Shown piece by piece: positions 1 through 42,098 of a DNA stretch of 64,000 bases. The stretch spans positions 19,975-83,974 of the forward strand of contig JAHFJL010000001.1 of assembly GCA_023245855.1 (NCBI GenBank), read 5' to 3'. The notes beneath the pieces were generated by a model. The model ran no database searches. It was not told the DNA's origin and saw nothing but the letters and a program-made list of their open reading frames with translations. Each line of letters begins with the position of its first letter. Position 1 is the stretch's first letter. Both the position numbers and the translations under genes were made by a program. The stretch is from a bacterium (lineage in GTDB: Bacteria; Patescibacteriota; Gracilibacteria; Absconditabacterales; Absconditicoccaceae).

Positions 1-1
1 G

Positions 2-1837
2 GGAGGTTCTTGTGTACTTGTAACCCAAGCAATCGTCAATAACGCATGCATCAACTATCAATATAATAATTCACTCGGATGAATAACAACCGGTCAAACC
101 TGCAGCTCAGTCAATGCAGCGATTACCCTTCCTCCTGTCGTGGCAAGTGGATGACAATGCCAATCCTTGACTCCGCTCAATGGAACTATCGCACTCGTAA
201 ATTCAAATGGAAATGCATCTAGTATGTTTAGATGTTCAACTACCAGCTGAACAACCGCACAAAATATCACTATCAATTGTTGAGATGGTAATATACATAC
301 CGCGACTAATGTTTCCACTTTGGATGCGACATGTATCTATACTAATGTCAGCACACCTCACACCTATCCTGTTTCCTGTTCTGTCGACGGAGCAACCTCA
401 CCTGCTTGTCAGCAAAATCTAATCGCTGATCAGTGAACATTCTGAAGATGCGGTGATGGTATCCGTCAATGATATGAACAATGCGACGATGGAAATCTCA
501 ATTGAAGTTCTCAATCAAGTTGTTCTGTAGGATGTAATCTTAACTCTACTACAGCAGGACTTGCAGGATGTTTCAATATCGGCGATGCCAACATCTCTGT
601 ACAAGAAAATGAACTCTTGCCGTTTTGGCGAACCGTTGATGGCGATCAAAACGCAGTCTCCACTTGTGATTCTCTCAACACAAATAAAGTGCAAGCAGAT
701 AGTCTGCAATGTGTATTCCAAATATACAACAGCAATGGTGTAGCGGGCAACACTATCAATGTCCCATGCAAACAGCAAAATTCTGCTGCTATCTTCGATT
801 ACTTCAGCAGCATCGGAGTCTCATCAATGCTTGATGCATACGGAAAATTTTATACTCCTATAGATAGTAGTATAACTAACGGAATGTATGGAGAATATAA
901 AATCAGGCTTCAGGAAGTCAAATATAACTACTGTAATGGCACTACCTTTGTAAGCTGATCACCGCTCCAAAGGGTCTGTGAAACTAATTTCACTGTTACC
1001 AAACCTTATCTCGCACAGAAGAATTCCTTTGGTCTGACGCCTAAAGCTACGAATATCAGACTCGATGGATACAGCACATTGAATGGAACGAATCTGATCG
1101 ACAGTACGGATCTTTCTGACATCATGATACTCAATGAATCAGCATACGCTCCTGGAAATAACATTCAAGCGATGATCAATACCTTCATCACCAAATATGA
1201 TAAGCTCGCTATCCCTGTTCCTCAAAGCTCATTGAAAAATACGGCTTTTGATGGATTAGATATCACAGTAAAAATCGTCCCTCAACAGAAAATCTATATC
1301 TTACAATCTGACACCAAGAAGACGATTACCTTGAAAAACATCACTTCATTTACCGCTCCGTTTACGATCGTCACAAATAATATCGATCTTATAATCAAGG
1401 GAGATGTGAATTATAATGGTATGTTCTTGGTCAAAGGAGGAACGATCTCGTTTGAAAAATCAGATGATATCGTAGGTAATGATAGATGTCCTACTACGCA
1501 GACCGTCAAATGAATATTTGTTACTGACGGCGGATTTGTCGGCTGAGCACCACTCGCAAATACTGATGCCAATCAAAATCGATGTTCTCATGGAGGTTTA
1601 TACGTCAAATGAGTTTTGATCGGCGATAATGTTGAAAGCATCGTCCAATCCAGAAGATCACAGCTCAATCATCGGTTTATAGCTGGCGGATCATCTGACG
1701 CAGCAATCAAAGCTGAAAGAAGAAATGAGATTTTCAACGGTGCTGCTGTACTCATAGAATACAGTCCAAGTCTATGGAGTTCATTACCTCCAGGTGCAAG
1801 CGAATTTACAACTGCATTGAATATCTACAAGCAATAA
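2..1837 (+). CDS. Secreted cysteine-rich-repeat surface protein, C-terminal 611 aa (5' end outside window)
   Basis: Sequence from base 2 plus track fragments 617-958, 1079-1513 and 1616-1837 form one frame interrupted only by TGA. The motif RCGDGIRQGYEQCDDGNLNG (about 440-510) fits the Myxococcus-type Cys-rich repeat, with TGA at conserved Gly positions. TAA stop at 1835-1837. Confidence 0.7.
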
Positions 1838-1927
1838 AAATAGCCGAAAGCTAAAAGCTTGAAGCGAAAAGCAGCAAAACAGAAAAGAGGCGGAGAGTAT
1901 CTGTCTCTTTTTTTATTTATCTTTTTT

Positions 1928-1995
1928 GTCCTCCTTTGTGAAGGAGGGGCTTGTCCTTTGCGAAGTCAAAGGGAACCCAAAGGGTGGAGGATTTA
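1928..1995. repeat. GC-rich hairpin cluster (REP-like), probable terminator of upstream gene
   Basis: Hairpins cctcctt-tgtg-aaggagg (1930-1947) and cctttg-cgaagt-caaagg (1955-1972), followed by a T-rich tract. GC-rich in AT-rich surroundings. Track ORFs 1859-2132 are just translations of it. Confidence 0.5.
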
Positions 1996-2104
1996 TTTTT
2001 TTCTTTTTTTATTTCAAATTCCTTTTCTTTCGGCTTCTCCTTTATCCACGAAAGTGTTTTTTCATAAATTATTTTTCAAAACACAAAAATAAACCAAATA
2101 TTTA

Positions 2105-2139
2105 CTTGACATTGTTTAGTAAATATTTATAAAATTAAA
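2105..2139 (+). promoter_or_regulatory. Sigma70-like promoter candidate
   Basis: TTGACA (2105-2110), 17-18 nt spacer, then ATAAAAT. Lies about 40 nt upstream of ATG 2178. Confidence 0.45.
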
Positions 2140-2177
2140 CATTCAATCCAAACTTTTATACTTAATATATCGCACAC

Positions 2178-4424
2178 ATGAAACTTTTCTCTTTAAAAAC
2201 GCTCTTAGGTTTGTTTCTCGTAACCCTTGCAGGAGTGATAGTATGAAACGGTGGTGCGCAAGTTTTTGCGTATGATAGTTTATACTATACAGGAAACTTT
2301 ACTCCAGCAAATTGTGACCCTACGCTTATGAACGTAGTCAATCTTTCTGGTGTTTCATTTGTGGGTGGAAACTTAGCTGTTAACAGCATCTATGTATTCG
2401 ATGCAGGGAATTACACTATCCCAGCAGGGAATATTACGCTTAATGGAAATTGTATTTCCATGGTAGCAAATGGAGACACTCCAGGAAATGTAGTGCTTAA
2501 TTTTGCGGGAGGCGGATATATCTCCAGCAATGGATTCAGTAATCTTATGATTGCGGGTTTTGATGCTACTCACATGATCACCTCTGATTTCCTTTGGAGT
2601 TCTTTCTTAGGAATCTATCTTCAGAACTGATCTAATGCAACGATTAAAAACGTATCTATGAATGATACAGTGACTAACGGAGCATGAATCGCAATTGAGA
2701 ATTTTAGCTGAGGAACGATCTCAAATACTACTTTATCCGGAAATCGTTCACTAGGATTGACTTTGAATGCCTCTTCTAATATCACTATTACGAACAATAC
2801 ATTTACGGATAACAATGTTTGACTTTCATTGCAACTTGCTTCTTTAAACAACACTATTTCCAACAATACCGCAAATTTCAATACGGACAAAGGTATCTGG
2901 TTACAAGCTTGAGCTAATGGCAATACGATTTCTAACAACACTATAAACAATAATACTAATTATGGAACACTTTTGGAAGGGGTATCAGGTTCTCTGGTCT
3001 CTAACAATACCATCACGAATCAAACCCTTGGAATCTGATTAGCACTATCTTCAAATAGCAATCAAAACAATGTTATCTCCAGCAATACGGTTACTGCTAA
3101 TTTTATCGGAGTATATATTGATGCAGCAAAAAGCAATTCATTTTCAAATAATATTATCTCTTCAAACGCTAACTGGGGATTAAACCTTGTGAATACTGCT
3201 ACAGGGAATATTTTCACTTCAGATATGCTCTCTTCAAATACTAATGAAAACATAGATATCTCCAATGCGCACAACAATCAATTTATCAACACTACGATAC
3301 AAAGTTCTGCATTAGGTATCAATCTCATCAATGCAAATTTCAATGTTTTTTCTGGTGTAAATGTAGCAGGTAATACCAGTGGAATAACCCTTACCACTTC
3401 ATCAAACAACACGTTAAATCTTGTAAACAATACTAATGGCATCTCATTGTATGCTGGATCAAATACCAACAACGTCATCAATACTCAAGTTGTCGGGCAG
3501 AATATGATCACTATCGTAAATGGATCTAGCAACATCATCACAGGATGACTCTTTGGTGCGAGTTCTACTACGAGCTCAGCAGTAAATATCACCCTCAAAA
3601 ATAATCAATGAAGTCCAACGTATGACATCACTTGATCAGGATTAAGTGGAAGCTATGCTGGCTTAATGAGCGGTTCTTCACAAACATTCGCTATCAATCT
3701 CACTTCTGGTCTTTGAACAAAAAATATTCTTGTCACCTATAATAATGGAAATAAACAATACGATACTCTCACTCTTAATGCTGTTCCTCCTCCCCCAGAT
3801 GGCGGTTGAGGTTGATGAGGAGGAGGTGGTTGAGGCGGATTTGTAGCTCCCACAACATGAACTACTACTCAAACAAACATATTTACTGGGATTTCTCTTC
3901 CTGTATGAAATATTGTAGGATCACCATATACGACTGAAATGAATAGTGCTTATCTCTGGGCATATGCAAATGGCATCACCACTATGGATACTATCCAACA
4001 AGCAGATATGGAAGGTAAACTTCTTAGATCACATATGGCAAAAATGATGAGTAATTTTGCGATAAAATTATGAGGACTTATTCCAAATACTTGAGCGCAA
4101 TGTGAATTTACAGACATTGAAAATCAAACTACTGAAATGAAATTCTATATTAAACTTTCATGTCAGCTTTGACTTATGGGTGTAGGTATCACTACTTTCG
4201 ATCCTAATAGCGAAGTGACCAGAGCTCAATTTGGTACTGTTTTATCGAGATTAATCTGGGGAACAACATATAACAATACAACTCCTTATTATCTTTCACA
4301 TTTGAATGCACTTAAAAATGCGGGCATTATGACAATCATCTCAGATCCAAGTATGGAGGAAATCAGAGGGTTTGTTTTGATCATGATGAAAAGGACATAT
4401 GATTGAGGATTTTTAAATAATTAG
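2178..4424 (+). CDS. Secreted parallel beta-helix (PbH1/NosD-like) repeat protein with poly-Gly linker and C-terminal SLH-like repeats
   Basis: ATG 2178 with signal-peptide-like MKLFSLKTLLGLFLVTLAGVIV. Track fragments 2328-2630, 3189-3548 and 4176-4406 are the same frame joined through TGA; I checked 2631-3188 and 3549-4175 and found no TAA/TAG. Many N..IS.N.......GI repeats. G13 linker at 3801-3839. SLH-like segment FDPNSEVTRAQFGTVLSRL. TAG stop at 4422-4424. Confidence 0.8.
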
Positions 4425-4566
4425 GGGAAAGCAGAAAGCAGAAAGGGACAAGGAACAAGGTGAAAGGAACATGGGATGAGGCGAAAGTATAAAGTTTTAC
4501 ATTATAAATTATACACTCTAAATTATACCTTATAAATTATAATTTCTGAATTTTTAATTCATCAAA

Positions 4567-4596
4567 AATGAGCACTTCGGTGTTCATTTTTTTTTG
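4567..4596 (+). terminator. Rho-independent terminator
   Basis: Stem atgagcac / gtgttcat (one G-U pair) with ttcg loop, followed by T9. Confidence 0.6.
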
Positions 4597-4734
4597 TTAA
4601 AAATATTACGAAAAATGAAAATCATATGTTATCTAAAATCATCAGCGTGTATATAAATCAAAACGTAGTTCATAAGCCAGAAAAATATATTATATCACCT
4701 AACTCATCTTCTTGCTATTTTCTTCCAATTATAC

Positions 4735-4768
4735 TTGACAATTATCAGGAAATATTTATACATAACTT
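4735..4768 (+). promoter_or_regulatory. Sigma70-like promoter candidate upstream of adhesin block
   Basis: TTGACA (4735-4740), N16, then TATACA. The context tacTTGACA...AAATATTTATA is nearly identical to the element at 2103-2135. Confidence 0.35.
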
Positions 4769-5121
4769 ACTGCGGTAAGTATACCGACAGAACTGACCCT
4801 GGGAAATATTATGTTTCCCTAGGTAGATCCTTAACAAAATCACTAACCAAAAAAACTTATGAAAGGAGCAAAAAGATCATGACTCTAAAATTTTTGGTTA
4901 ACAACATAAAATATATCTTTGAGATTAAAAATAAAATGCTTTTGATACATCATAGAAAAATCTATGCAGAAGATCTTATTTTTTATTCGGGATAATTTTG
5001 TGCTGTTGACTAGCGTTTATAGGCTTTCTGAATATTGCCTGCTTGCGCGTAAATAAATACAAGCGAAAAAAAAATTCTGTCACTAAACCTGAAACAAAAA
5101 AACAAATTAAATCCAAAAATT

Positions 5122-5892
5122 ATGAAAAAAATCATGTATCTGTTGGTTCTGATGATCATTACGATATCAGCCCAACTGGTTACCGCGCAAACCGTAACCA
5201 TCGCTACAAATCCAAATCCGGCCGATATCTGTGCTGGAAGCGGTACCATTGTGTCGCTAACTGCTAATCCTACGGGTGGGATAGTCATGGGATATTCATG
5301 GTCAAATGGTGGAAACACTCAGACGATCAATGTATCTCCTCTTGCTACCACTCCTTACACGGTTACTGTTACCTTTTTGGGTGGCTTTACTGCTACTGCT
5401 TCACAAACTGTCACTGTCCTGCTTTCACCTACACCAACAATCACTGCAGGTGGTTCATTAAACATCTGCATCGGAAATTCGGTTACACTCACTTCATCTG
5501 CTGCTGCTTCATATCAGTGGTATTTGAATGGTACAATCATTCTCGGTGCAACATTACAAACATACTCAGCTTCTACCTCTGGTTCTTACCAGGTATTCGT
5601 AACTGTAGGCACTTGTACTGGTATGTCACTTGCTTCTGTGGTAACGGCAAATCCATTACCCACTGCAACTGTCACACCTTTAGGTCCTCTTACTACGTGC
5701 TGGGGAACACCTATCACTTTAACTGCCGCTGTCGGTGTTGGTTATAATTATCAATGGCAAATGTCTCCCAATGGACTTGTTCCATGGACAAATATTATTG
5801 GTGAAACCAATCAGACTACAAATATCAATACAACCGGCTATTATCGTGTACAAGTGATTGACGCAAATGGATGCGTAAATTATTCATTGTAA
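5122..5892 (+). CDS. Secreted Ig-like repeat protein (Bacteroidota-style adhesin family)
   Basis: Uninterrupted 256-aa ORF with signal peptide MKKIMYLLVLMIITISAQLVTAQ. Thr/Gly-rich Ig-like modules carry YQW..NG..I.GAT..tY motifs. No in-frame TGA. TAA stop. Confidence 0.75.
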   Translation: MKKIMYLLVLMIITISAQLVTAQTVTIATNPNPADICAGSGTIVSLTANPTGGIVMGYSWSNGGNTQTINVSPLATTPYTVTVTFLGGFTATASQTVTVLLSPTPTITAGGSLNICIGNSVTLTSSAAASYQWYLNGTIILGATLQTYSASTSGSYQVFVTVGTCTGMSLASVVTANPLPTATVTPLGPLTTCWGTPITLTAAVGVGYNYQWQMSPNGLVPWTNIIGETNQTTNINTTGYYRVQVIDANGCVNYSL

Positions 5893-5938
5893 ACATCAAC
5901 TCACTAACTCATTAAAAACTAAAAAAACGTAACTTCAT

Positions 5939-7420
5939 ATGAAAAAAATCTTCGTATTCTGTTGTTTGATGGCAATGCTTTCTACAACACAGACAATAAC
6001 AGCTCAAACTGGTATACATATCACTGTATGGCCTCAATTTGTAGCTGGGACATTATCCGGTGGTATCTCTCCATTATGTTATAATGGAGCTACTGGAATC
6101 ATTACAGGAGTCGCTCCAATAGGAGGACAAGGAGTATATACCTACCAATGGCAACAATCATTGGATGGAGGAACTACTTGGACTAATATTGGTGGCGCAA
6201 CTGGTATCAATTATGATCCTGGAAATCTTCTTGTAAGCACAATGTTCAAAAGAAATGATACAGATCCTTGCGGAACTGTACCTACCAATAACATATCAAT
6301 TATTGTATATGGGCAATTCTTAGCTGGTGTAACAACTGGCGGAACTTCTCCTATATGTAATGGTGTTTTTGGTGGCGCATTAACTTCAACTGCAGGAAGC
6401 GGTGGTGCTCCTGGCACTACGTATCAATGGCAATTATCCACTGATGCTGGAGTAACTTGGAATGATATCTTAGGGCAAACTGCCCTAACTTTGAATATCG
6501 GTGCTCTTACCCAATCTTCCTCATTCAGATTAAAATTTATCAATCCAAGTTGTGGTGCAATTTATGGTAATGTAACATCCTTTACCGTGTATGCAATATT
6601 CTCTGCAGGAACGGTAACTGGCGGTAACACTCCTATGTGCTACAATACCAATGCAGGTATTTTGACAAGTACAGCTCCAACAGGAGGTGCTCTTGGAACA
6701 ACCTTACAATGGGAAAGTTCAAATGACGGTATCACTTATATTGATATTGTTGGTCAAACTACACTTACAACCAACTTGGGTAATTTAACTCAAACTATGT
6801 GGTATCGGTTACGATACACCAATCCTTGTGGTATTACGTACAGCAATGTAAGTAATATCGTAGTGTATGCTCAATTCGTAGCGGGCACTATCTCATTGGT
6901 TGGTTTAACTCCAATCTGTAATGCTACTGATCCCGGATCATTTAATGGAACGGCTGCTGCTGGTGGTGCTCCTGGCACAACTTATCAATGGCAACAATCT
7001 GTGGATGGTGGAACAACTTGGACTAATGTCCTAGGAGCTACACTGGCTACGTACGATCCGGCTAATTTAACTATTACAACTATGTTCCGCCGTCAGGATG
7101 TGAACAGTTGTTTAACTCTTCTTACCAATATCATTACCATTACCGTTTACCCTGCATTTAATCCTGGGGTTATCGGAGTTGCTCAAACAATATGCTGGGG
7201 ATCGACACCGAATTCGTTAAATTTCACTACTCCTCCAAGTGGCGGAGATGGAACGTATACGTATCAGTGGGAATCAAGTTCTAATGGTCTTGTACCTTGG
7301 ACAACAATTCCAGCAGCTATAGCAAATACCTATCAACCACCTTCATTAACAAGTGGCATCTGGTACCATGTAGTAGTCACTAGCGGTTCAGGCTGTGGCA
7401 GTGGCCCAGCTCTTCCATAA
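5939..7420 (+). CDS. Secreted protein with five tandem ~92-aa Ig-like repeats
   Basis: Signal peptide MKKIFVFCCLMAMLSTTQTITAQ. Repeat unit is FVAGT..GG.SP.CYN...G.....A..GG.G.Y.YQWQ.S.DGGTTWTNI.GAT...Y.P.NL...TMFRR, five copies. No in-frame TGA. Confidence 0.75.
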   Translation: MKKIFVFCCLMAMLSTTQTITAQTGIHITVWPQFVAGTLSGGISPLCYNGATGIITGVAPIGGQGVYTYQWQQSLDGGTTWTNIGGATGINYDPGNLLVSTMFKRNDTDPCGTVPTNNISIIVYGQFLAGVTTGGTSPICNGVFGGALTSTAGSGGAPGTTYQWQLSTDAGVTWNDILGQTALTLNIGALTQSSSFRLKFINPSCGAIYGNVTSFTVYAIFSAGTVTGGNTPMCYNTNAGILTSTAPTGGALGTTLQWESSNDGITYIDIVGQTTLTTNLGNLTQTMWYRLRYTNPCGITYSNVSNIVVYAQFVAGTISLVGLTPICNATDPGSFNGTAAAGGAPGTTYQWQQSVDGGTTWTNVLGATLATYDPANLTITTMFRRQDVNSCLTLLTNIITITVYPAFNPGVIGVAQTICWGSTPNSLNFTTPPSGGDGTYTYQWESSSNGLVPWTTIPAAIANTYQPPSLTSGIWYHVVVTSGSGCGSGPALP

Positions 7421-7445
7421 TACATACAATAAAAAAATATACTAT

Positions 7446-9533
7446 ATGAAAAAAACAATCAAAATCCTGTTGTGTGTTGCCGTATTATTCACGGTAACCA
7501 CAGTAGGGCTCTCTCAAACGGGAGTTCAGATTACAATAAGCCCTTCCCCTACGCTACATAGCGTCATGGGAGGCGGACAATATTGCGCTGGACAACCAGG
7601 GGTATCTGTATCACTTTCAAATTCGGAAGGTAATATCAGTTATCAACTGGTACGTAACGGCATGAATACTGGTTTACCTGTAACGAATGTAATAGGAGGA
7701 ATCAACTTTGGAATACAAATTATTCCAGGGATATATACGGTTGTTGCTACGGATGTTAATACGGGTTGCTCTATCCAAATGAGTAATTCTGCAAATGTAA
7801 CAATGAATCCTATACCTTCTATTACTATGAGTGCATCTGGTCCCGTTGTTTTCTGTGGTTCAGGAACAGTTACCTTGTCAGCGAATGTTGCTGGAGGTGG
7901 TTGTACCTATCAATGGAAACATAACGGAACAGCAATCCTGGGGGCTAACCTCAATCAGTATGTAGCTAACCAAACCGGTATGTTTACCGTAGTTGCTACA
8001 AACGGAAGCGGATGTTCCAATACCCATGATACCATGGTTACTGTTAATCAGTTACCTCAACAATTCAATGTCTCTGGCAGTTCAGCAACGTTCTGTCAAG
8101 GCAGTGCCGGTGTAACTATCAATCAGAATGGCTCTCAAAACAATACCAGCTATCAATTGGTATTGAACGGGTTTTCTCAAGGAGGACCTGTAGGTGGGAA
8201 CAATTCTGCCTTAGCATGGGCAAACCAAGCTAATGCGGGTATCTATACCGTTGTTGCAACAGATAATTTAACAGGTTGCACTAACGTAATGAATGGAAGT
8301 GCAGTTGTTGCTATGGATCCTTTACCAAGTGCTGCTTCAGCTATTGTTGGAGTAATGTCTCTATGCCAAGGAGCAACATCTACATTTACTACAAATACAA
8401 TCACCAATGCAACCAGTTATGTCTGGTCAGTACCTACCGGAGCTACTATTATTTCCGGTCAAGGCACAAACATGATACAAGTTAATTTTACTGGCGCTTC
8501 CAGTGGAAACATTGGAGTGTCTGGACAAAATGCTTGTGGTAGTGGACAATCTTCTACAATTCCAATTACTATTAACTTAGCACCAACGCTTATAGTTACT
8601 GCTACGAGTACAGACATCTGTACTGGTGCAAGCACTAATTTGACAGCTAATGGTACTGGAGCAAGCTTTAATTGGACTGGAGTAGGCATAACCCAAACAA
8701 TCACAATTAGCCCTATAATAACAACAACCTATACCGTTACAGTAACTGGGAATAATTCTTGTACCGCTACTGACAATATCACGATAAATGTTCATGCATT
8801 ACCTATAGTTAGCTTAACCTTAGCTCAGGACAATTTCTGTACTGATGTTAATAGCGCTGTAATTAGTGGCGGTTTACCTGTAGGTGGTAGCTATATCGGT
8901 TCTTGCGTACTGGGTAGCAATACCGTTTACCCTCCAGTTTCAGGAACGGGAACGTATATCGTAACTTATACCTATACCAACAATTGGGGATGCGGCAGTT
9001 CTGCAACGGACAATCTAACAATCAACCCTCTCCCTACTGTAATGTTTACCAATATCACTGGACAAATATTTGTTAATACCCCGGCATTCAGTTTATCAGG
9101 GTTTGTCAGTCCAAGCGGTGGAACATTTACAGGTACTGGGATGACAGGAAGCATGTTTGATCCGGCTGTTGCTGGAGCAGGAAGTTATATGATTACTTAT
9201 ACGTATACCCATCCGATCACGGGATGCAGCGCAAGCCAAATCCAGTATATCAATATCGGAGCGGTTGGTATCAATGAAATCGCTGCTGCAACCAAAAATA
9301 TTACTCTTTACCCAAATCCAACCCATAGCCAGTTGAATTTGTCTAACATCAATACCAGGGAAATAAAAAGCATTCGCATTACTAACATTATTGGCGAGGT
9401 AGTTTCTACTACTGAAGTCATTACTGAAAATATGCAGCTTAATGTTTCCAATCTTGTACCGGCTACTTATCTTATTCAATTCATAAATGCTGACGGTATG
9501 TCTGCCAGCAAATACTTTATGAAAACTGAGTAA
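7446..9533 (+). CDS. Secreted Ig/PKD-like repeat adhesin with T9SS type A C-terminal sorting domain
   Basis: Start moved from 7395 to ATG 7446 (MKKTIKILLCVAVLF signal peptide). The C-terminal ~80 aa (ITLYPNPTHSQLNL...IRITNIIGEVV...LNVSNLVPATYLIQFINADGMSASKYFMKTE) fit the Por/T9SS CTD pattern. No in-frame TGA in 695 codons. Confidence 0.8.
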   Translation: MKKTIKILLCVAVLFTVTTVGLSQTGVQITISPSPTLHSVMGGGQYCAGQPGVSVSLSNSEGNISYQLVRNGMNTGLPVTNVIGGINFGIQIIPGIYTVVATDVNTGCSIQMSNSANVTMNPIPSITMSASGPVVFCGSGTVTLSANVAGGGCTYQWKHNGTAILGANLNQYVANQTGMFTVVATNGSGCSNTHDTMVTVNQLPQQFNVSGSSATFCQGSAGVTINQNGSQNNTSYQLVLNGFSQGGPVGGNNSALAWANQANAGIYTVVATDNLTGCTNVMNGSAVVAMDPLPSAASAIVGVMSLCQGATSTFTTNTITNATSYVWSVPTGATIISGQGTNMIQVNFTGASSGNIGVSGQNACGSGQSSTIPITINLAPTLIVTATSTDICTGASTNLTANGTGASFNWTGVGITQTITISPIITTTYTVTVTGNNSCTATDNITINVHALPIVSLTLAQDNFCTDVNSAVISGGLPVGGSYIGSCVLGSNTVYPPVSGTGTYIVTYTYTNNWGCGSSATDNLTINPLPTVMFTNITGQIFVNTPAFSLSGFVSPSGGTFTGTGMTGSMFDPAVAGAGSYMITYTYTHPITGCSASQIQYINIGAVGINEIAAATKNITLYPNPTHSQLNLSNINTREIKSIRITNIIGEVVSTTEVITENMQLNVSNLVPATYLIQFINADGMSASKYFMKTE

Positions 9534-9568
9534 ATATAGAAATAATTAACTGAAATATTCACTTAACA

Positions 9569-9599
9569 GGCGTCGGTTTTTTACCGGCGCTTTTTTTTT
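9569..9599 (+). terminator. Rho-independent terminator
   Basis: Stem ggcgtcggt / accggcgc (one wobble) followed by T9, 36 nt after the stop at 9533. Confidence 0.7.
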
Positions 9600-9912
9600 G
9601 TTTAAAATAAATCTAATGAAGTATGCTTCGTAGAAATGTAGATTTTCAAAAATATCTATTTTTCACTGATTCTGATCCAGATAAAATTTCTTTCCACTCT
9701 CATTCCTCATTCATTATTCATCATTCCTCATCCATTTTTTGGATATTCATTCATTTTATGTCAATTTCGTATTGATTTCACAACTATTTTCTATATATTC
9801 ATCCACACGTAAATTTTTTGTTTATTCAGAATTTTTGAAAACCTAATTACCACCTATAATAGCTTCAAGCATCAGGCTTCGAGCATTAAGCTTTAATATT
9901 TAAGTTATGTGT

Positions 9913-10341
9913 ATGCCTACTATCAACCAGTTACTTAAAAAATGAAGGACTAAAAGGACTTATAAATCAAAAGCTCCTGCTTTGCAGTTTGGTATCAACA
10001 AACTCGACAGCAACAAAAGAGTAGATAATCCAGCTCCTTTCAAGAGAGGGGTTTGTCTCAAAGTATCTGTCATGGGACCAAAGAAACCGAATTCAGCGCA
10101 AAGAAAATTTGCGAAGGTAAGATTATCTAATGGAGCTGAAATACTTGCATATATTCCAGGAGAATCTCATACGCTTCAAGAACACAGTGTCGTACTTGTA
10201 AGAGGATGAAGAGTAAAGGATCTTCCAGGTGTGAGATATCATATCGTCAGAGGAAAATATGATGCCAATCCTGTAGACAAGAGAAGACAATCAAGATCTC
10301 TCTACGGAGCAAAGAGACCAAAAGCAACTGTTAAAAAATAA
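9913..10341 (+). CDS. rpsL: 30S ribosomal protein S12
   Basis: [14 protein letters not shown]...[19 protein letters not shown]...[27 protein letters not shown] at 9943-9945 and 10207-10209 both sit at conserved Gly. Track ORF 9982-10209 is the internal fragment. Confidence 0.95.
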
Positions 10342-10404
10342 CATTAGGTCCTGGACGTTAGTCCTTGTACCTTGTACCTTTTACCTTGTACCTCAGTCAC
10401 TATC

Positions 10405-10857
10405 ATGTCAAAATTAGTTGTAGGAAATATGTCTAATCCAAAAATCGAAAAAATCATCAACTATCTCATGAAGCATGGGAAGAAAAGTGTTGCTAAAAAA
10501 ATCTATGATGATACTTTAGCTGAGATCAAATCTAGTGGACATATGAATCCAGAAATCGTATTGGAAACTGCTATAGAAAATGCTTCTCCTACTTTGATGA
10601 TTAAGTCAAAGAGAATGGGAGGTTCAGTATATCAAGTTCCTGTGGAAGTGAGACAAGATAAAAAATTATTTTTCGCTTTCAAATGGATTTTGGATGGAAC
10701 TAAATCTAAAAAAGGAAAACCTATGTACAAAAAATTGGCTGAAGAATTATTGGCTGCTTACGGTAACCAAGGATATGCAGTAAAAAAGAAGGAAGAAACA
10801 CTTAAGATGGCGGAAGCTAACAAAGCGTTTGCTTACATGGCTAAATACGTACATTAA
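10405..10857 (+). CDS. rpsG: 30S ribosomal protein S7
   Basis: MSKLVVGN...HGKKSVAKKIYDDTL...KSKRMGGSVYQVPVEVR...KEETLKMAEANKAFA. ATG 10405 chosen inside track ORF 10372-10857. Confidence 0.9.
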   Translation: MSKLVVGNMSNPKIEKIINYLMKHGKKSVAKKIYDDTLAEIKSSGHMNPEIVLETAIENASPTLMIKSKRMGGSVYQVPVEVRQDKKLFFAFKWILDGTKSKKGKPMYKKLAEELLAAYGNQGYAVKKKEETLKMAEANKAFAYMAKYVH

Positions 10858-10924
10858 ACATAACAACCAAGCGTTTCGTCGCTTAAACATTTCAAGGATT
10901 TATCTTCTATAAATTATTAAGAAA

Positions 10925-11176
10925 ATGGGAAATACAAGTGGTGCAAAATATAAACACATGATGTACAACGTATCGCGAGCAAGCCAAAAATCTGGTAGAA
11001 AACTAGAAAAAGCTCTTGATCGATATGTTGATCTTATCAAAAAAGAAGCTGCACAAGGAGAGACAAAATGGATCTACAAGACAAAAGAGAGAGCACAAGC
11101 AAGACTTAAAAAATTTGGTATTACACAAAAGATGGTTGATGCTGCTTTGGAGAAAAAATGACTCCTTAAAAAATAG
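10925..11176 (+). CDS. Small Lys-rich hypothetical protein (83 aa)
   Basis: Track ORF 10925-11161 extended through TGA to TAG at 11174-11176. No family recognised. Confidence 0.4.
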
Positions 11177-11249
11177 ATTTAGATACTAGATTCAAGATTG
11201 CAATCATGCATCATATATCGTGAATCGTTTTAAATTATTTGTTTATTAG

Positions 11250-11393
11250 ATGACTAGATTAAAAACCAACGCAAAAAGAAAACTCAACAAAGCTTTGTTT
11301 AGAGTTGAAAAAGTAGTAATCATGGACGTAAGAAGAAATCTTGAGCAACAGAAAAAATGGAAAGCTAAAGTAATGAACAAAAAATCTAAATAA
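11250..11393 (+). CDS. Very basic 47-aa hypothetical protein (possibly ribosome-associated)
   Basis: MTRLKTNAKRKLNKALFRVEKVVIMDVRRNLEQQKKWKAKVMNKKSK. Sits between ribosomal protein genes and is below the track's length cutoff. Confidence 0.3.
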   Translation: MTRLKTNAKRKLNKALFRVEKVVIMDVRRNLEQQKKWKAKVMNKKSK

Positions 11394-11465
11394 ATCTTTA
11401 GATGCTAGGTTCGATACTACAAATCCTGTATTATGAAACAAATTTATATTATTATATATTGGTAA

Positions 11466-11891
11466 ATGAATTTTGACAGACTAAAACATTTCTACGAAAA
11501 CAATGGAAGCAAAATCCTTGACGTACAACCAGGTATGCAATTGGAAATCCACGAAAAAGATGTAGAAACAAATAGAATTTGGAGATTTAAATGTCTCGTG
11601 ATCAAAGTAAAAAAACCTGGTCATGCTGATGGTTCTTTCACGGTTAGAGGAACTGTTGCTGGTGTGGAAGTAGAAAAGATCTACCCACTTTCTTTCAATA
11701 ATTTCGATAAAATCATCCTCTTGGATGAATATAAAGTAAGAAGAGCTAAACTCTACTACATCAGAGATAAGGTAGGAAAGGATGCAAGATTCAAGTCTAA
11801 GATCACTGCTGCAAAAAGAGATATGAACCTTCTCGACAAAGACGCAGCAAAAGTAAAAGAGAACAAAGGAAAGAAAAAAGCAAAAAAATAA
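11466..11891 (+). CDS. rplS: 50S ribosomal protein L19
   Basis: ...RIWRFKCLVIKVKK...FTVRGTVAGVEVEKIYPLSFNNFDKI.LLDEYKVRRAKLYYIRDKVGK is the L19 signature. Confidence 0.9.
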   Translation: MNFDRLKHFYENNGSKILDVQPGMQLEIHEKDVETNRIWRFKCLVIKVKKPGHADGSFTVRGTVAGVEVEKIYPLSFNNFDKIILLDEYKVRRAKLYYIRDKVGKDARFKSKITAAKRDMNLLDKDAAKVKENKGKKKAKK

Positions 11892-11972
11892 CATTTAGAA
11901 TGTAGTAATTAGAATTTTCAGCTTTATGCTTTATGCTTTGAGCTTAGAAATTATCATTTATCATCTATCATT

Positions 11973-12644
11973 ATGTATAAAATGGAACTTATTGTAACCT
12001 CTCGCCAAAATATGAAGGCAAAAGACTTGAGAAAAGAAGGATTGATTCCTGGAATAATTTATGGAAAACATCTCGATACCCCTATCATGGTCGCTTGCAA
12101 AAGAAATGATCTTATCAAAAAATATAAGGAAGCTGGATACTCTACTCCGCTTACTATTACAGGTGACAACAAACTTGATCAGCTCGTTTTGATCCAAGAT
12201 ATCCAATTAGATCCTGTGTCTGATGTACTCTTGCATATAGATTTTTTGGCGGTTAACAAAGATGAAAAAGTTACTACGGAAATACCTATCAAGATGATCG
12301 GTGAATCTCCTATCGAAAAATTGGGACAAGGAAAAATACAGCTTTTGAAAGACTTTATCGAAGTTGAAGCGTTCCCTCAAGACTTACCGCATGACATTAC
12401 TGTTGATATCTCAATCATCCAAAATATGAATGATACGGTAGTCGTTAAAGATCTTAAAGTATCAAGTAAAGTCAAAGTACTTGATGATCCTGAACAAGCT
12501 ATTATTACCGTTGTTACTATGCAAGAAGAAGTAGAAGAGACTCCTGTAGTCGCTGCTGCTGAAGGTACGCCTGCTGAAGGTGCTGCTGCTCCAGCTGCTG
12601 GTGCTGCTCCTGCTAAGGATGATAAAAAAGATGCTAAAAAATAA
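11973..12644 (+). CDS. rplY: 50S ribosomal protein L25 / general stress protein Ctc
   Basis: LRKEGLIPGIIYGKH...IQLDPVSDVLLHIDFL...IEVEAFPQDLPHDITVDIS plus an Ala/Pro/Lys-rich tail. The start could be the Met at 11982. Confidence 0.85.
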   Translation: MYKMELIVTSRQNMKAKDLRKEGLIPGIIYGKHLDTPIMVACKRNDLIKKYKEAGYSTPLTITGDNKLDQLVLIQDIQLDPVSDVLLHIDFLAVNKDEKVTTEIPIKMIGESPIEKLGQGKIQLLKDFIEVEAFPQDLPHDITVDISIIQNMNDTVVVKDLKVSSKVKVLDDPEQAIITVVTMQEEVEETPVVAAAEGTPAEGAAAPAAGAAPAKDDKKDAKK

Positions 12645-12675
12645 TTCCCTTTATATATATTAACTGCTAAATACA

Positions 12676-12864
12676 ATGGCAAGAATATGCGACTTTTCTG
12701 GAAAATGAACTAGATCTGGAAATATGAGATCTCACTCTATGAGAGCAACTAAAAGAGCGTTCAAACCCAACTTGATCAACAAACAAGTGACTTTGGAAGA
12801 TGGTTCAAAACTCAATGTAAAAATCAGCTCTAAGATATACAAGAAACTTAAAGGATTCATCTAA
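12676..12864 (+). CDS. rpmB: 50S ribosomal protein L28
   Basis: [33 protein letters not shown]... The TGA encodes the Gly in the GK-G-T segment. Not in the track because it is split by that TGA. Confidence 0.9.
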
Positions 12865-12892
12865 AAAAAACCTGTATATATTTCATCGACAT

Positions 12893-12965
12893 GGGGTGGT
12901 AGCTCAGTCGGTAGAGCAATGGCCTTTTAAGCCAGTGGTCCAGGGTTCGATCCCCTGTCACCCTA
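12893..12965 (+). tRNA. tRNA-Lys (anticodon UUU)
   Basis: Cloverleaf folded by hand. Acceptor GGGGTGG/TCACCCT; D arm GCTC-AGTCGGTA-GAGC. Anticodon stem ATGGC/GCCAG with loop CTTTTAA. T arm CAGGG-TTCGATC-CCCTG. No encoded CCA. Confidence 0.85.
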
Positions 12966-13000
12966 GATGAAATATGTTTCTTGTTTTCATATATATTGAA

Positions 13001-13027
13001 ATATCTGAGCAATCAGATATTTTTTTG
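13001..13027 (+). terminator. Rho-independent terminator after tRNA-Lys
   Basis: Perfect stem atatctga / tcagatat with loop gcaa, then T6. Confidence 0.65.
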
Positions 13028-13228
13028 TTTTTTTTAGTCCAGGTTTTATCTAGAGGACTCCACTACTATTGCCTTAGATGAAATAGGTACTAATCTAAAG
13101 ATATTAACAACAAGTTACTCTAGTATTTTTTTATTTAAACGATTTTTTTAGTTGAAATACGGACCAAATACAGTACATAAGAGTATTGAATTTTCGCTTG
13201 CTAGTATGTTTATCTCTCATATATCGCT

Positions 13229-15619
13229 ATGAAAAATCTTGTTATCGTTGAGTCTCCCGCTAAATCAGCCACTATCAAAAAATTTCTCGGTGAATGATTT
13301 GAGGTCAAAGCATCATTTGGGCATGTAGTTGATCTGCCTCAAAAAGAGCTCTGAGTGGATGTGAAAAATAATTTCGCGCCAAAATACGTCGTCTCTCCTG
13401 AAAAGACTAAGGTCGTAAGCGAGCTGAAAGCTCTAGCGAAAAAGGCTGATAAAGTCTGGATCGCTACCGATGAAGACCGCGAGGGGGAAGCTATTGGTCG
13501 ACATGTAGCTAACGAGCTATGATTAGATATCAAAAAGACTGCAAGGATCGTATTCCATGAGATTACAAAAGAAGCGATCGATAAAGCCGTAAAAAATCCA
13601 AGAACCATAGATATGCATTTAGTGGATGCTCAACAGGCAAGAAGAATCCTTGATAGACTCGTAGGATTCGAGCTCTCACCTGTCCTCTGGAAGAAGATTA
13701 AAATGGGGTTGAGTGCATGAAGAGTCCAATCCGTCGCCGTAAGGTTGATCGTAGAAAGGGAAAGAGAAATCCAAAAATTTGAGTCAGCATCGTTCTTTAA
13801 AGTTATTGGAAATTTTGTTGGTGATGCGAAAAAGGAGTTTAGAGCTGAATTAAGCAAGGATCTCGGCAACGCCGACGAAGCGAAGAAATTTTTGGAGTCC
13901 TGCAAGGATGCGAAATACGCTATCGAAAACGTCGAAGTCAAACCCGGAAAAAAATCGCCTTCTGCGCCGTTCACGACTTCTACGCTCCAACAGGAAGCGA
14001 GTAGAAAGCTCGGATTCTCCGTAGCGAGAACGATGCAAGTCGCTCAGAAATTATATGAATGAGGGTTCATCACCTACATGAGAACCGATTCCGTGAACAT
14101 GTCAGATTTCGCGGTGAAAGCGGCTCAAGACGAGATCATCAGCAGATATGGGAAAGACTATTCGAAACCGACGCAATATACCACTAAATCCAAATGATCG
14201 CAAGAAGCGCATGAATGTATCAGACCGACACATATGGAAAACAATATCGCTGGAGGCGACGCTTCTGAAAAGAGGTTGTACGAACTTATCTGGAAGAGAT
14301 CCATCGCATCCCAGATGGCGTCTGCTGAAGTAGAGAAAACTAAAGCGACTATCAGCATCTCAACGAATAATAAATTCAATTTCATCGCGAGCGGTGAAGT
14401 CATCAAGTTTGAAGGGTTCTTGAAAGTATATCTGGAATCTACCGATGAAGATGAAGACGAAGAAGAGTCTGGGATGTTGCCGAAGCTCACGAAAGGAGAG
14501 ATCCTTGCGATGCAGCAGATCCTTGCGACAGAAAGATTCAAGAACCATCCGCCAAGATACACGGAGGCGTCGTTGGTCAAGAAGCTTGAAGAGCTTGGAA
14601 TCGGACGTCCGTCTACGTACGCGCCTACGATCTCTACCGTCCAAAAAAGAGGATATGTATTGAAAGAGGATAGGAATGGAACGGAAAGAAAGTACCAGGA
14701 ATTTGTGCTGAGATTAGGCACCATCAAAGCGGATACCAGGACACAAAATACCGGAGCTGAGAAACAAAAACTTTTCCCGACTGACATCTGAATGTTGGTG
14801 AATGATTTTTTGGTGACGAATTTCAAAGATATTTTGGATTACAACTTCACGGCGAGCGTTGAAGGGGAATTTGATGAAATCGCTGAAGGGAAGGTGAAAT
14901 GGGCGGAAATGATCAAACATTTTTATGGGCCGTTCCACAAAGAGGTCGCTAAAACGATGGAGTTTGCTGAAAAGCAAAGCGCTGAAAAAGAGCTCGGAAT
15001 CGATCCCAATACCGGAAAGAAAGTCATCGCAAGGATCGGAAGATTCGGACCGATGGTGCAAGTAGGGACCGCTCAAGATACTGAGAAGCCGAAATTCGCG
15101 TCATTGAAACCTGGGCAGACTATCGAGATGCTTACCTTGGAAGATGCATTAGGATTGTTCGCGTTACCAAGGATTGCAGGAAACTACGAATGAGAGCCTG
15201 TGACCGTGGCTGTCGGTAAATTTTGACCCTATCTGAAATACAAGACGTTCTTTGTCTCGATTCCGAAAACGCTTGATCCGTATACCATCACCATGGACGA
15301 AGCTACGCCGCTTATCGCGAAGAAAATCGATACAGAAAAAAATAAATATATCAATGAATTTGATAACAAGTGAAAAAAAATAGAAGTGCTTAATGGGCTC
15401 TATGGTGCATACATCAAGTTTGATGGTAATAACTACAAGATCCCCAAAGGATGAAAGGATGCAACTGATCTTACGATGAAGGATTGCCTAGAGATTATCG
15501 CTAATGGTCCTAAGCCAAAGTTTGGTAGTAAAAAAGAGGCTGCACCTGTAAAAAAGGCGCCTGCTAAGAAAGCTGTTGCTAAAAAACCAGCCGCTAAAAA
15601 AATCACTAGGAAGAAGTAA
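13229..15619 (+). CDS. topA: DNA topoisomerase I
   Basis: [21 protein letters not shown]..., [10 protein letters not shown] (Toprim), [32 protein letters not shown]. Track fragments 13745-14062, 14234-14791 and 14792-15193 are in one frame joined by TGA. Lys/Ala-rich tail. TAA stop at 15617-15619. Confidence 0.95.
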
Positions 15620-15631
15620 AAAATATGTGAA

Positions 15632-15652
15632 TCCGGCGAAAGTCGGGTTTTT
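15632..15652 (+). terminator. Rho-independent terminator after topA
   Basis: Stem ccggc / gtcgg with GAAA tetraloop, followed by T5. Confidence 0.6.
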
Positions 15653-15803
15653 CTAAAAAAAATTATTTCTATCAAATAAACAATCCAAATTACTTTATAT
15701 TTAAAGCGGAATTGGTACATTAGAAAAAATCAATTTTTTTGACCTAAAGGATAAAAAGTGTTCTGAGTACATCAAAAAATAGCTTTATTTTCAATCATAC
15801 CAT

Positions 15804-16355
15804 ATGCCAATAAACAATCCATTACATCGGGATAAGAATGCTTTTCTATTAGTAATAAACGATATTCTAGATAGATTATATACTAAAGAACTCCATTTAT
15901 TTACTAATAATGAAGGTAAATGATTGACCGAAAGATGTTTGGTATTTAGAATATCATTTTTCTTACAAAGATTTTTTACAAAATACAAATATTATGTAGA
16001 TTGTGACTATAATAGTTCTCTCGAATTAGTCTATACTCACGATGGACGTTACCAATGGAAAAATAATCCAGGAAAGCTAATTACCTGCAAAAACTCTCAA
16101 TGAAATCTAGTTATGATTAAGAGATTCATTGATATTATTATCCATAAAAGAGTTAATAAAAGAACTGATTTAATTTGTTTTGAAGTAAAAAAACGAAATA
16201 ATCAAGACTCAAAAAATATGGAAAAAGATACGAACAATTTAAAAGTTTTAACTTCCGACTATTGATATAAATTTTGATTCCATTTAATTTTATGACAGAC
16301 CAGAAAAACTTGTAAAATACATACTTATGCCTTTTGATCAGAGATTATTGAATAG
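15804..16355 (+). CDS. Hypothetical protein, possible PD-(D/E)xK nuclease fold (183 aa)
   Basis: Continuous frame with 7 TGA=Gly. RFIDIIIH ... DLICFEVKK resembles a D...ExK catalytic motif. Invisible in the track because of the TGA splits. Confidence 0.5.
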
Positions 16356-16413
16356 CAATCTCATTCATTTTTTTATTTCTCACTAAAATATATATTTTTT
16401 ATAATTTAGAATA

Positions 16414-16893
16414 CTAATGTTTCCAACTCCGTTTGATAAATTTTACTATCAAATAAATAATTAATAATATTCATACTAAAGAAATAATATATCGTTTAAT
16501 AGCCCATAAAAATCCAAGTATTCATATTACAATATTTTCTAAACTCATTCATCGTGTTCGATAACTCAATAACACAATTATTGCAAGAACCAACAAAAAT
16601 CGAAATATATTTGCAATATATTCTCAAATATATTTAAATGAAAGACCCATATTTCAAAGGAACAATAAAAATCACATTGTGCTCAGTGGTATGGATATTA
16701 TTAATCACACAATTATTCAATCTTTACCTCATATAATTCATCAAATTATAGGTAGAATTAACCGAGATAAGATGGTAAGCCATAATAAACATCAATTATT
16801 TTGGATCTTGTTAATTATAGACAATTTTTGTTGTCCTTCAGATATTTTATTAATTTTTTCTACTTTTTGATAATGATTGGACTTCTTAGACAT
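16414..16893 (-). CDS. Small Gly/Ile/Leu-rich integral membrane protein (159 aa)
   Basis: ATG at 16893-16891, TAG at 16416-16414, and 13 in-frame TGA codons. Hydrophobic segments such as LLWLTILSRLILPIIGGIIGG. Confidence 0.55.
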
Positions 16894-17160
16894 GTGTATT
16901 TATAACAATAAAAACAAACATATAATATATAAACTATCACTATAAATATTCAAGATAAGGAATAGATTTTTCATCGTACAAATTTCTACTAAAAACACAC
17001 TTTAACTCATCTTAAATACTAGCTTCCCCATATAATTTCTATTTCTGTCAAAAATAATCTTGATAATTAAAATATGATGTATATAATTGATACGCAAAAA
17101 AAATCTGAACTTTTGTGAATATTTTTTAATGTCGAATTTTTATTTTTTTATGACAGGAAG

Positions 17161-18183
17161 ATGGAGAAGAAAATTACAGAAGCACCGAATAAAGGTGATA
17201 TTATGCTCTACAAGGATAAAGAGGGAAAAACTGCGGTCGAAGTGAAATTTGAAAATGAGACGGTGCGGTTAAATCAGAAACAGATTGCTATCTTGTTTGA
17301 TAGAGATACCAATACCATCTGAGAACATATACAAAATGTTTTTCATGAAAAAGAATTAGATAAGACAGCAACTACCCGGAAATTCCGGGTAGTTCAAAAA
17401 GAGTGATGAAAAGCAGTAAAAAGAACTATAGTACACTATAATCTGGATGTGATTATATCCGTAGGATATCGTGTAAAATCTATGAGAGGCACTCAATTCC
17501 GTATCTGGGCAACACAAAGACTCAAGGATTATCTCATCAAGGGATTCGCTCTCAACCAAAAAAGGCTTGAAGAGACTAAACTCAACGAGTTGGAACAAGT
17601 GGTCGCTTTGATCAAAAAAAATATCGATTATAAATGACTTTCGTATAAGGAGACTGCCGGATTGCTCCAAGTCATCACTACCTATACCTATTCATGGATC
17701 TTATTGCAAAAATATGATGAAGGAACACTAAGTCTACCCAATCTTCACGATGAACTGAAAGCTGAACTTACCTACAAAGAAGCTATCGAAGCGGTGCAGG
17801 CTATGAAGAAAGAATTCCTGCCCAAAAAACAGGTATCAACGCTCTTTGGTATCGAAAGGAATGATGAGTTGAAAGGGATATTGCAAAGCGTGTATCAATT
17901 TTTTGATGGACAACCACTCTACTCGAGCATCGAAGAAAAGGCAGCATACCTCTTATATTTTATCATCAAAAATCATCCTTTCGCTGATGGGAACAAGAAA
18001 ATCGGGGCGTTTCTTTTTCTCCGATTTCTTGCTAAAAATAGCTGTCTCTATCATGCCAATGGATCTAAAAAAATCGATGATGCAACCGTGGTTGCGATAA
18101 CGCTTTTGGTCGCGACTTGCGATAAAAACCAAAAAGATATGATCATAAAATTGGTTCTCAATTTCCTAGCAAAGAAAGAATAA
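17161..18183 (+). CDS. RhuM-family N-terminal domain fused to Fic/Doc domain protein
   Basis: N-terminal part: VVHYNLDVIISVGYRVKSMRGTQFRIWATQRLKDYLIKGF (RhuM-like). C-terminal part: HPFADGNKKIGAFLF (Doc-type Fic motif). Fragments 17449-17637 and 17662-18183 join through TGA. Confidence 0.8.
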
Positions 18184-18289
18184 TCATTATCTTGTAATTT
18201 CTCGCTAAAAACATACCTTGGAGCTAGTTTAAAACCAATATCATTTCCAGATTATAAATTATAAATTTTAAATTATAAATTCTTTTCTC

Positions 18290-36940: not shown

Positions 36941-36963
36941 CTATCGGTATAAAAGAATAAAAA

Positions 36964-38286: not shown

Positions 38287-38304
38287 AAGAGATATGAAGA
38301 TAAA

Positions 38305-42094: not shown

Positions 42095-42098
42095 GAGA

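Follow-up and report, generated by a model that had tools for sequence, protein, structure and literature searches.

Evolutionary signatures of the standard genetic code in a conserved adhesin operon of TGA-recoded Absconditabacterales

A bacterial genome in which TGA is read as Gly appears to carry two coding dialects, so that the same codon, CGA, would stand for Trp in topA and for Arg in adhesin and SPFH genes. We have analysed a 64-kb stretch of this genome (contig JAHFJL010000001.1, hereafter the window), which belongs to the Absconditabacterales (candidate division SR1), a group within the candidate phyla radiation (CPR), and focused on an operon of three consecutive genes, P1, P2 and P3, called the block below; the flanking genes that use TGA are called native. 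Positions refer to the window, and features lie on the plus strand unless stated otherwise. P1 (5122–5892, 256 aa), P2 (5939–7420, 493 aa) and P3 (7446–9533, 695 aa; a GTG start at 7395 is also possible) all end with TAA and encode Gly by GGN at 9.8%, 13.4% and 11.1% of codons, respectively, and none of their 1,444 codons is an in-frame TGA. To judge from the aligned sequences, purifying selection on the operon fits the standard code, and does so by four independent counts, namely the lack of TGA sense codons, the lack of CGA/CGG for Trp, the free use of CGA/CGG for Arg, and TGA as the stop codon of a small open reading frame (sORF) in the leader.

The native genes of the window and of ten related lineages follow code 25 plus CGA/CGG=Trp, as read from their conserved positions. 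Most long open reading frames (ORFs) of the window, when only TAA and TAG are taken as stops, have in-frame TGA at 0.2–7.5% of codons, and TGA is assigned to Gly because, in rpsL, it encodes the second Gly of a universal 13-residue motif. The initial annotation had described P1–P3 as three ORFs of 1,444 codons without TGA, and had counted TGA by hand in the flanks; the ORF reading agrees with the former and our recount gave the same numbers for the latter, with 11 in topA (13229–15619, 1.4%), 11 in HsdR (51030–53729, minus strand, 1.2%) and 25 in an OLD-like AAA_15/AAA_21 ATPase (48136–50139, minus strand, 3.75%), all three annotations being supported by Pfam. For comparisons among genes, codons were counted in 9–10 lineages whose sequences had been aligned with X in place of TGA, CGA and CGG. 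TGA makes up 482 of the 2059 native Gly codons, consisting of 375/1387 in surface genes and 107/672 in housekeeping and ribosomal genes. Besides UGA=Gly (NCBI table 25), CGA/CGG=Trp has been predicted for Absconditabacteria (Shulgina and Eddy, 2021; PMC8629427). Consistently, native CGA/CGG codons occupy 19 of 76 cells in Trp-conserved columns and none of 467 cells in Arg-conserved columns; for example, in comparison with solved structures, a CGA of topA (codon 91) falls on the conserved Trp of DREGEAI(A/S)W-H, and a CGA of iPGM (codon 191) on the Trp of DRDKRW-DR. The block, the SPFH gene and the paralogs of the C-terminal domain (CTD) of P3 depart from this native code (PMC8629427) within the same genomes.

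The absence of TGA from the 170 Gly codons of the window block has a probability of P ~1e-17 at the TGA share of flanking genes (~20–23% of Gly). The triplet is present out of frame, 23 times in frame +1 and 18 times in frame +2, and therefore the avoidance is frame-specific and acts at the level of translation. Over the lineages, TGA accounts for 0/1571 Gly codons of the block and 0/1400 cells in Gly-conserved columns; by gene, over nine lineages, there are 0 TGA against 202 GGN in P1, 632 in P2 and 737 in P3, and the sole TGA that was counted at first belonged to a spurious 5' extension of one annotation. All 73 invariant Gly columns of the block contain more than one GGN codon and none contains TGA, which indicates that synonymous sites are saturated, whereas 19 of the 21 invariant Gly columns in the adjacent beta-helix gene mix TGA and GGN. 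Three further paralogs with a Por_Secre_tail domain, found in related loci, have 0 TGA against 124 GGN.

The second REASSIGNMENT (CGA/CGG=Trp) supplies the key test of the block's code. CGA/CGG codons of the block occupy 0 of 182 cells in Trp-conserved columns, against the native 19/76 (Fisher p=1e-11), and 5 of 60 cells in Arg-conserved columns, against the native 0/467 (Fisher p=2e-5); for P2 by itself, the Trp columns give 0/110, and its CGA/CGG codons in the window lie around nt 6800. In standard-code Bacteroidota homologs, the columns that hold CGA/CGG in the block are Arg and its Trp columns are Trp. CGA/CGG makes up 12 of 94 Arg codons of the block (13%), against 11–14% in 27 standard-code relatives with GC below 0.46; these codons are therefore not depleted, and nothing points to selection against their standard meaning. 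The choice of Arg codons is also foreign, being CGY-rich in the block versus AGA-dominated in native genes. By these evolutionary signatures, the block fits the standard code (table 11), with TGA as a stop only, CGA/CGG as Arg and TGG as Trp, and its TGA-free state is the result of long-term purifying selection that extends to the second reassignment, CGA/CGG. The block is not a compositional outlier: its GC (0.41–0.43) is slightly raised versus its neighbours (0.34–0.36) and stays within the range of the window, and its GC at third codon positions is low, like theirs. The use of TGA stops to separate a "standard only" from a "dual compatible" state was abandoned as uninformative, because only 2 of 50 genes of standard-code relatives have a TGA stop.

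The fourth count comes from the leader of the operon, in which a 38-aa sORF (4879–4995; MTLKFLVNN...LLIHHRKIY...SG before the stop) is preceded by GGAG. The sORF is present in 10 lineages and has a length of 33–41 aa provided that TGA is a stop. Five lineages encode the conserved Arg of its HRKI(Y/F) motif by AGA and four by CGA/CGG, and the stop of the sORF is TAA in seven lineages and TGA in three; when these three are read with code 25, the products become 77, 345 and 101 aa. The 345-aa ORF, in locus L008 (7347–8384), would arise by readthrough of the sORF TGA in frame with P1 and be fused to it, and it might act as a decoding-dependent switch.

Other genes of the same genome share the dialect. 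The second standard-dialect gene, an SPFH/Band-7 gene (25883–28207), has 0 TGA against 64 GGN; it has CGA at a position where 86/86 homologs have Arg, and every Trp column is TGG. It is also free of TGA in a syntenic SR1-type locus (L028), which has the same iPGM-SPFH arrangement. The SPFH protein is 71% identical to a chromosomal copy of Chitinophagales and 79% identical to a copy on a phage-like contig, while the two SR1 lineages share 76%; a viral scan with the single protein, whose reach is limited to close relatives, found nothing. The phage-like contig (L024; ENA ERZ4223863 NODE_25, 163 kb) has, in the locus 1–18316, low GC, short genes, 10 tRNA genes and a tmRNA together with the 79%-identical SPFH gene; it is probably a huge phage and is a possible vehicle for standard-dialect genes. 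An ORF at 34653–35885 (410 aa, no family match) is a candidate third standard-dialect gene for which the evidence is weak: 0 TGA against 12 GGN, seven TGG against no CGA/CGG, CGY/(AGR+CGY) of 0.5 and an A-rich leader. The block is thus not the sole TGA-free stretch among the long genes of the window, these being P1–P3, SPFH and ORF 34653, which have in common A-rich leaders, Trp encoded only or predominantly by TGG, and CGY-rich Arg. Directly after SPFH in L028, a gene for about 780 aa without a Pfam match (10374–12758) is another candidate, with 0 TGA against 35 GGN where its neighbours have 8–39 TGAs. The standard dialect is a property of a gene class (adhesin operon, SPFH, CTD paralogs) and not of a single locus.

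The best matches of P3 and P2 are full-length orthologs with 43–74% identity, and those with a name belong to candidate division SR1 or Candidatus Absconditabacterales. The same gene order (CLIPPER, beta-helix, P1-P2-P3, rpsL-rpsG-L19-L25-L28, with topA and iPGM in loci that extend far enough) is found in 11 lineages from independent assemblies, namely the window, L002, L004, L007, L008, L009, L011, L030, L031, L115 and L116, and pairwise protein identity among the compared lineages is 37–72%. Window 4785–12909 (8.1 kb) is matched at 99.4% identity by a Logan contig of a different sample, which runs from the block into rpsL, rpsG, L19 and L25; an ENA contig encodes an identical P2 together with left-flank ORFs equal in length to those of the window, a comparison made at the protein and ORF level; and in nine lineages of greater divergence one flank or both are present. 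A lookup of exact sequences found P2 and returned no record for P3. Relatives in the standard code are distant: matches to P3 are partial and reach 42% identity at most, and the best for P2 is a protein from a Bacteroidetes metagenome-assembled genome (MAG) on a standard-code contig of 48% GC (P0261, 44% identity over 94% of P2), an example of the closest non-SR1 relatives, which are Bacteroidota. The divergence of P3 is moderately correlated with that of the flanking beta-helix gene (r=0.63), and because such block/flank correlations ranged from 0.0 to 0.63, we have set congruence aside and relied on synteny. IMG/VR gave only partial matches of 30–43% to the block, on which ground a phage reservoir for it was rejected, and no integrase or att-like features were found at the block. 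The operon entered the ancestor of the Absconditabacterales (SR1) clade and was then inherited vertically at one locus.

P1–P3 are predicted to be secreted adhesin-type proteins with Ig-like and PKD domains and Bacteroidota ancestry, and they may serve in the capture of hosts or prey. P1 contains Ig_7 (CHU_C-associated), P2 is a repeat protein with a weak, sub-threshold SprB repeat, and P3 is a chain of Ig-like/PKD domains, including PKD_6 and Ig_7, that ends in a type A CTD of the type IX secretion system (T9SS). This CTD (nt 9306–9512; Por_Secre_tail, residues 621–689 of 695) scores 40.8 bits with PF18962 (cutoff 27) and 32.2 with TIGR04183 (cutoff 23), and is listed in nearly all P3 orthologs. 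The N-termini of P1–P3 and of all orthologs are, on direct reading, of the Sec type (MKK..., a hydrophobic core, a small residue and Gln). Substrates of Bacteroidetes signal peptidase I reportedly carry Gln at +1 (the Q-rule attributed to Bochtler et al. 2018), and the predicted signal peptide ends VTA|Q (P1), ITA|Q (P2) and GLS|Q (P3) all follow it. The Gln+1 of P3 (Q24) is invariant in 24/24 orthologs and Gln+1 is present in the three CTD paralogs of related loci, too; when the N-termini of the native secreted CLIPPER and beta-helix proteins were inspected by eye, no such Gln was evident where cleavage is predicted.

An AlphaFold2 model of P3 (predicted local distance difference test score 86.6) is all-beta, a string of beta-sandwich domains with the C-terminal domain, of seven beta strands (residues 620–693), placed last. 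Its best matches in the PDB are grappling-hook fragments of GhpA (E 8e-26, TM-score on target <=0.6), a T9SS substrate with which Aureispira, a predatory member of Bacteroidota, catches prey (PMC12428579; bioRxiv 10.1101/2024.01.29.577165). P3 has in common with GhpA-like T9SS type A cargo a Sec signal with Gln+1, an Ig-like/PKD chain and a C-terminal type A sorting domain; unlike GhpA, it is encoded in a CPR genome (Absconditabacterales), it has 695 aa versus more than 5,000 aa, sequence identity is only about 20%, and its operon partners P1 and P2 have no recognisable CTD, unlike T9SS type A cargo. The likeness lies in the modelled fold of the Ig-like chain and would mean, at most, that P3 works like a GhpA-type grappling hook. 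We found no gene for the T9SS machinery (SprA, PorV, PorU, PorK-N) among the approximately 48 genes of the window, and the literature searched holds no report of T9SS cargo in CPR bacteria, nor of a CPR outer membrane or T9SS; for Vampirococcus, the secretion systems reported are Sec and type IV pili only. The Q-rule signal peptides, the CTD and the GhpA-like fold show that the block originated from a Bacteroidota-like donor by an ancient acquisition.

The block is a self-contained transcription unit composed of a native-type sigma70 promoter, a structured leader of about 360 nt, the sORF, the three genes and a terminator. Its left boundary is the intrinsic terminator of the beta-helix gene (4564–4601), a UUCG-loop hairpin with a T-run that is kept across the aligned lineages. 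The promoter (4735–4763; -35 TTGACA, 17-nt spacer, -10 TATACA) is near-consensus across lineages (TTGACA-N17-TATAMA), with TTGACAA lying 359–397 nt 5' of P1 in seven lineages, and it is of the same type as the conserved, sigma70-like promoter of native rpsL (TTGATT-N17-TATATT). A Bacteroidota-type promoter was rejected, because the TAnnTTTG motif is not conserved and occurs in only two of seven scanned lineages (two in the window and one in L002). Since the operon promoter is of the native SR1 type, transcription probably takes place in the epibiont, which is the simplest reading. Two 5'-proximal hairpins (approximately 4770–4790, and 4793–4826) form in seven lineages with differing stem sequences (z -2.8 to -4.4), and a long-range helix of 9 bp (4895–5012, window coordinates derived by hand from the alignment) joins 4895–4903 (UGGUUAACA) at the sORF start with 5004–5012 (UGUUGACUA) just past its stop; RNAalifold on eight lineages supports its nine pairs, five of them with compensatory changes. 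This set of elements, from the beta-helix terminator to the sORF with its helix, recurs 5' of P1 in all lineages examined. A known RNA family was rejected for this leader, Rfam having no family that matches it. At the 3' end, a strong intrinsic terminator (9568–9602; 10-bp stem with six GC pairs, T-run) is kept, as hairpin plus T-run, in six of seven aligned lineages.

The leaders directly before P1, P2 and P3 are A-rich and lack a Shine-Dalgarno sequence, whereas native leaders are T-rich. The native TGA-using genes also lack a Shine-Dalgarno sequence and have a recurring CTTTTA / CATTTATCATTTA-like motif 10–25 nt before ATG; examples of the T-rich 30 nt 5' of such genes are 2148–2177, 10375–10404, 11943–11972 and, on the minus strand, 53241–53270. 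This motif might serve as the promoter of leaderless mRNAs, or else as a signal for an unusual kind of initiation.

As for the identity of the reader, we infer that the decoder relevant to the fitness of the operon would take TGA as stop and CGA/CGG as Arg. The operon may be read by an apparatus that uses the standard code and lies outside the native SR1 system, a view in which we place a little less than even confidence. Within it, the single most likely mechanism, though a tentative one, would be translation by the Bacteroidota-type apparatus of a host or partner cell. The epibiont would transcribe the operon into a stabilised mRNA, the standard-code apparatus of the partner would translate it, and the Sec pathway, signal peptidase (Gln+1) and T9SS of the host would recognise the conserved sorting signals, so as to yield grappling-hook-like adhesins that mediate attachment; the transfer of mRNA, DNA or machinery between cells is the proposed, unproven step. 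More doubtful still is the wider form of the proposal, that the adhesin operon, the CTD paralogs and SPFH constitute a partner-code gene set with the initiation and sorting signals of the partner, and that host Sec/T9SS displays adhesins encoded by the parasite. A functional analogy is the T-DNA of Agrobacterium, whose genes are kept in one organism and carry the expression and processing signals of the organism in which they act. Unlike T-DNA, the operon shows no transfer machinery, border sequences or host-type promoter, and coding dialect and sorting signals are all that the analogy is based on. Partner translation is the only mechanism considered here that explains the conserved Gln+1, the CTD and the Bacteroidota-like leaders, and an association of Absconditabacteria with Bacteroidetes has been reported on the basis of coverage (PMC8406219).

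Several points weigh against translation in a partner. It needs a transfer of RNA or machinery for which there is no precedent, and the native-type promoter conflicts with DNA being the transferred item. The hosts of Absconditicoccus are Gammaproteobacteria, a group that is not known to have a T9SS. The hosts of Vampirococcus and of the epibiont described in PMC13059738 are Gammaproteobacteria as well. Furthermore, the Arg-column signal comes from P2 alone (5/60), with p=0.006 when compared with native surface genes only, and each block protein has just 0–3 CGA/CGG codons, so that SR1 ribosomes could still yield near-correct products.

Two rival explanations place translation in the SR1 cell. 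The one that comes nearer to partner translation, although we consider it unlikely, is code switching, in which a stage of the life cycle or a standard-code phage bringing tRNAs or release factor 2 (RF2) would establish standard decoding, and the adhesin operon, SPFH and the CTD paralogs would be the set made correctly in that state. It explains how a native promoter and standard-code constraints can go together, it can take in a gene set as mixed as this one, with its non-secreted SPFH, and it agrees with the existence of code-11-compatible Absconditabacteria phages (PMC10746230) and with the tRNA-rich phage-like contig that carries a 79%-identical SPFH. However, there is no cellular precedent, native genes would be mistranslated in the switched state, the Bacteroidota sorting signals are given no role, and neither a tRNA-Arg for CGA/CGG nor RF2 was seen in about 250 kb of SR1-type sequence, where the tRNA scan gave only tRNA-Lys and none that would serve a reassigned codon. 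Cost avoidance under native decoding is less probable again: very high expression would purge all three reassigned codons, perhaps slow or error-prone ones, and the few CGA/CGG codons of the block would be tolerated, real Arg-to-Trp substitutions. The near-consensus promoter, 5' hairpins, long leader and strong terminator do suggest an abundant, stable mRNA, and ribosomal-protein genes are partly depleted of TGA (2–22% versus 27–31% in surface genes); CPR cells have few ribosomes, so that a surface coat could out-express ribosomal proteins. The block, however, has the same general codon usage as the TGA-rich native genes around it and is less optimised than ribosomal-protein genes (NNC shares for Asn/Tyr/Ile of 32/28/34 versus 44/57/56), for which reason simple high-expression codon bias was rejected, and the ribosomal-protein genes themselves retain TGA and CGA/CGG=Trp. 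Synonymous choices would also have to be selected far more strongly than radical Arg-to-Trp changes at conserved sites, including the SPFH Arg conserved in 86/86 homologs, and these changes would have to be neutral; the CGA/CGG share equals that of standard-code relatives, and the TGA stops of the sORF are left unexplained.

The other rivals would have the dialect set outside the SR1 lineage. That gene flow is responsible, with a cassette residing mostly in standard-code genomes or code-agnostic phages and repeatedly re-entering or overwriting the SR1 locus, is in our estimation improbable. The cross-phylum kinship of SPFH, in which the Chitinophagales (71%) and phage-like (79%) copies compare with 76% between SR1 lineages, makes it plausible for that gene; for the block it is unsupported, all placeable full-length matches lying in SR1 genomes with the same locus, leader and promoter, the nearest standard-code proteins and the viral contigs standing at no more than 44% and at a partial 30–43%, respectively, no integrase or att-like features being present, and P3 divergence tracking that of the beta-helix gene moderately. 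The initial annotation had seen Bacteroidota-type proteins in the block, with a T9SS type A sorting domain at the end of P3, and these observations have been substantiated, the former by the Ig_7/CHU_C, PKD_6, SprB and T9SS CTD matches, P0261 and the GhpA fold, and the latter by scores above both curated cutoffs. Its explanation, a recent import that had not yet acquired TGA codons or else a chimeric contig, could appeal to these foreign-looking domains and the slightly raised GC; we regard it as having a negligible chance of being right, since eleven lineages are syntenic, synonymous divergence is saturated without any TGA, and independent assemblies run over both junctions. The closest full-length orthologs, moreover, lie in other TGA-recoded genomes, an outcome that the annotation had itself listed as contrary to its proposal.

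TGA-free, code-11-compatible phages have been predicted to infect Absconditabacteria and Gracilibacteria (Liu et al., 2023; PMC10746230), and their lack of TGA has been explained as compatibility with a cell that uses the standard code. Like them, the block consists of code-25-associated genes that have no TGA in frame and can be read with the standard code. It differs from these phage genomes as a cellular operon of the chromosome that is passed on vertically, and in that the evidence extends to the CGA/CGG reassignment, with CGA/CGG=Arg and the TGA stop of the sORF constituting positive standard use beyond avoidance. The literature searched holds no report of gene-specific avoidance of reassigned codons in code-25 cells, and to our knowledge no chromosomal operon has been described that is inherited vertically and yet retains the old code, with one genome giving the same codon two meanings. 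If the pattern holds, with CGA meaning Trp for topA but Arg for both SPFH and an adhesin gene of one chromosome, it is maintained by selection clade-wide, and stable old-code islands in cellular genes are predicted by no current model of genetic-code reassignment; if partner translation is true, it would amount to a nucleic-acid-level effector system between bacteria. It becomes testable how recoded organisms handle foreign genes, whether decoding differs by gene class, state or cell, and who the partners of uncultured Absconditabacteria are and how they attach to them. In practical terms, gene calling with a single code and Codetta-like code inference mis-handle such genomes, and the signature of the dialect, in which TGA is absent, Trp is TGG only and Arg is CGY-rich, can be used as a simple marker for host-interaction genes in code-25 MAGs.

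Some additional observations concern the native genes. A large defence island on the minus strand (36263–53729) encodes SocA/Panacea-HTH, GmrSD with a Schlafen AlbA_2 domain, a type I restriction-modification system (HsdM at 40598, HsdS at 45001 and HsdR at 51030), a HATPase_c_3 protein and the AAA_15/AAA_21 OLD-like ATPase. Nowhere else in the window is GC as low or TGA use as high (up to 62% of Gly codons), and therefore the genes of the island circulate within the recoded gene pool. The beta-helix (NosD-like) surface protein (2178–4424), with 21 TGA codons, is useful as a native secreted control; around residues 545–560, PPPPD is followed by an uninterrupted run of 13 Gly, and the C-terminal part of the protein resembles a cell-wall-binding domain. 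A tRNA-Lys(UUU) gene (12892–12966) lies 3' of L25, and of L28 where called, in the window and in five loci (L002, L004, L007, L008 and L009). Three loci, L008, L009 and L011 (CAZIVH01, CAZKEK01 and CAZBQE01), are labelled 'Candidatus Peribacteria'; their in-frame TGA, CGA/CGG=Trp and SR1-type synteny make this taxonomic label, or the code that it implies, look wrong. In L116 (15897–18530), standard-code gene calls split topA into five fragments and truncate rpsL and L25 while P1–P3 stay intact, a pattern that can serve as a simple visual marker of dialect islands in public annotations.

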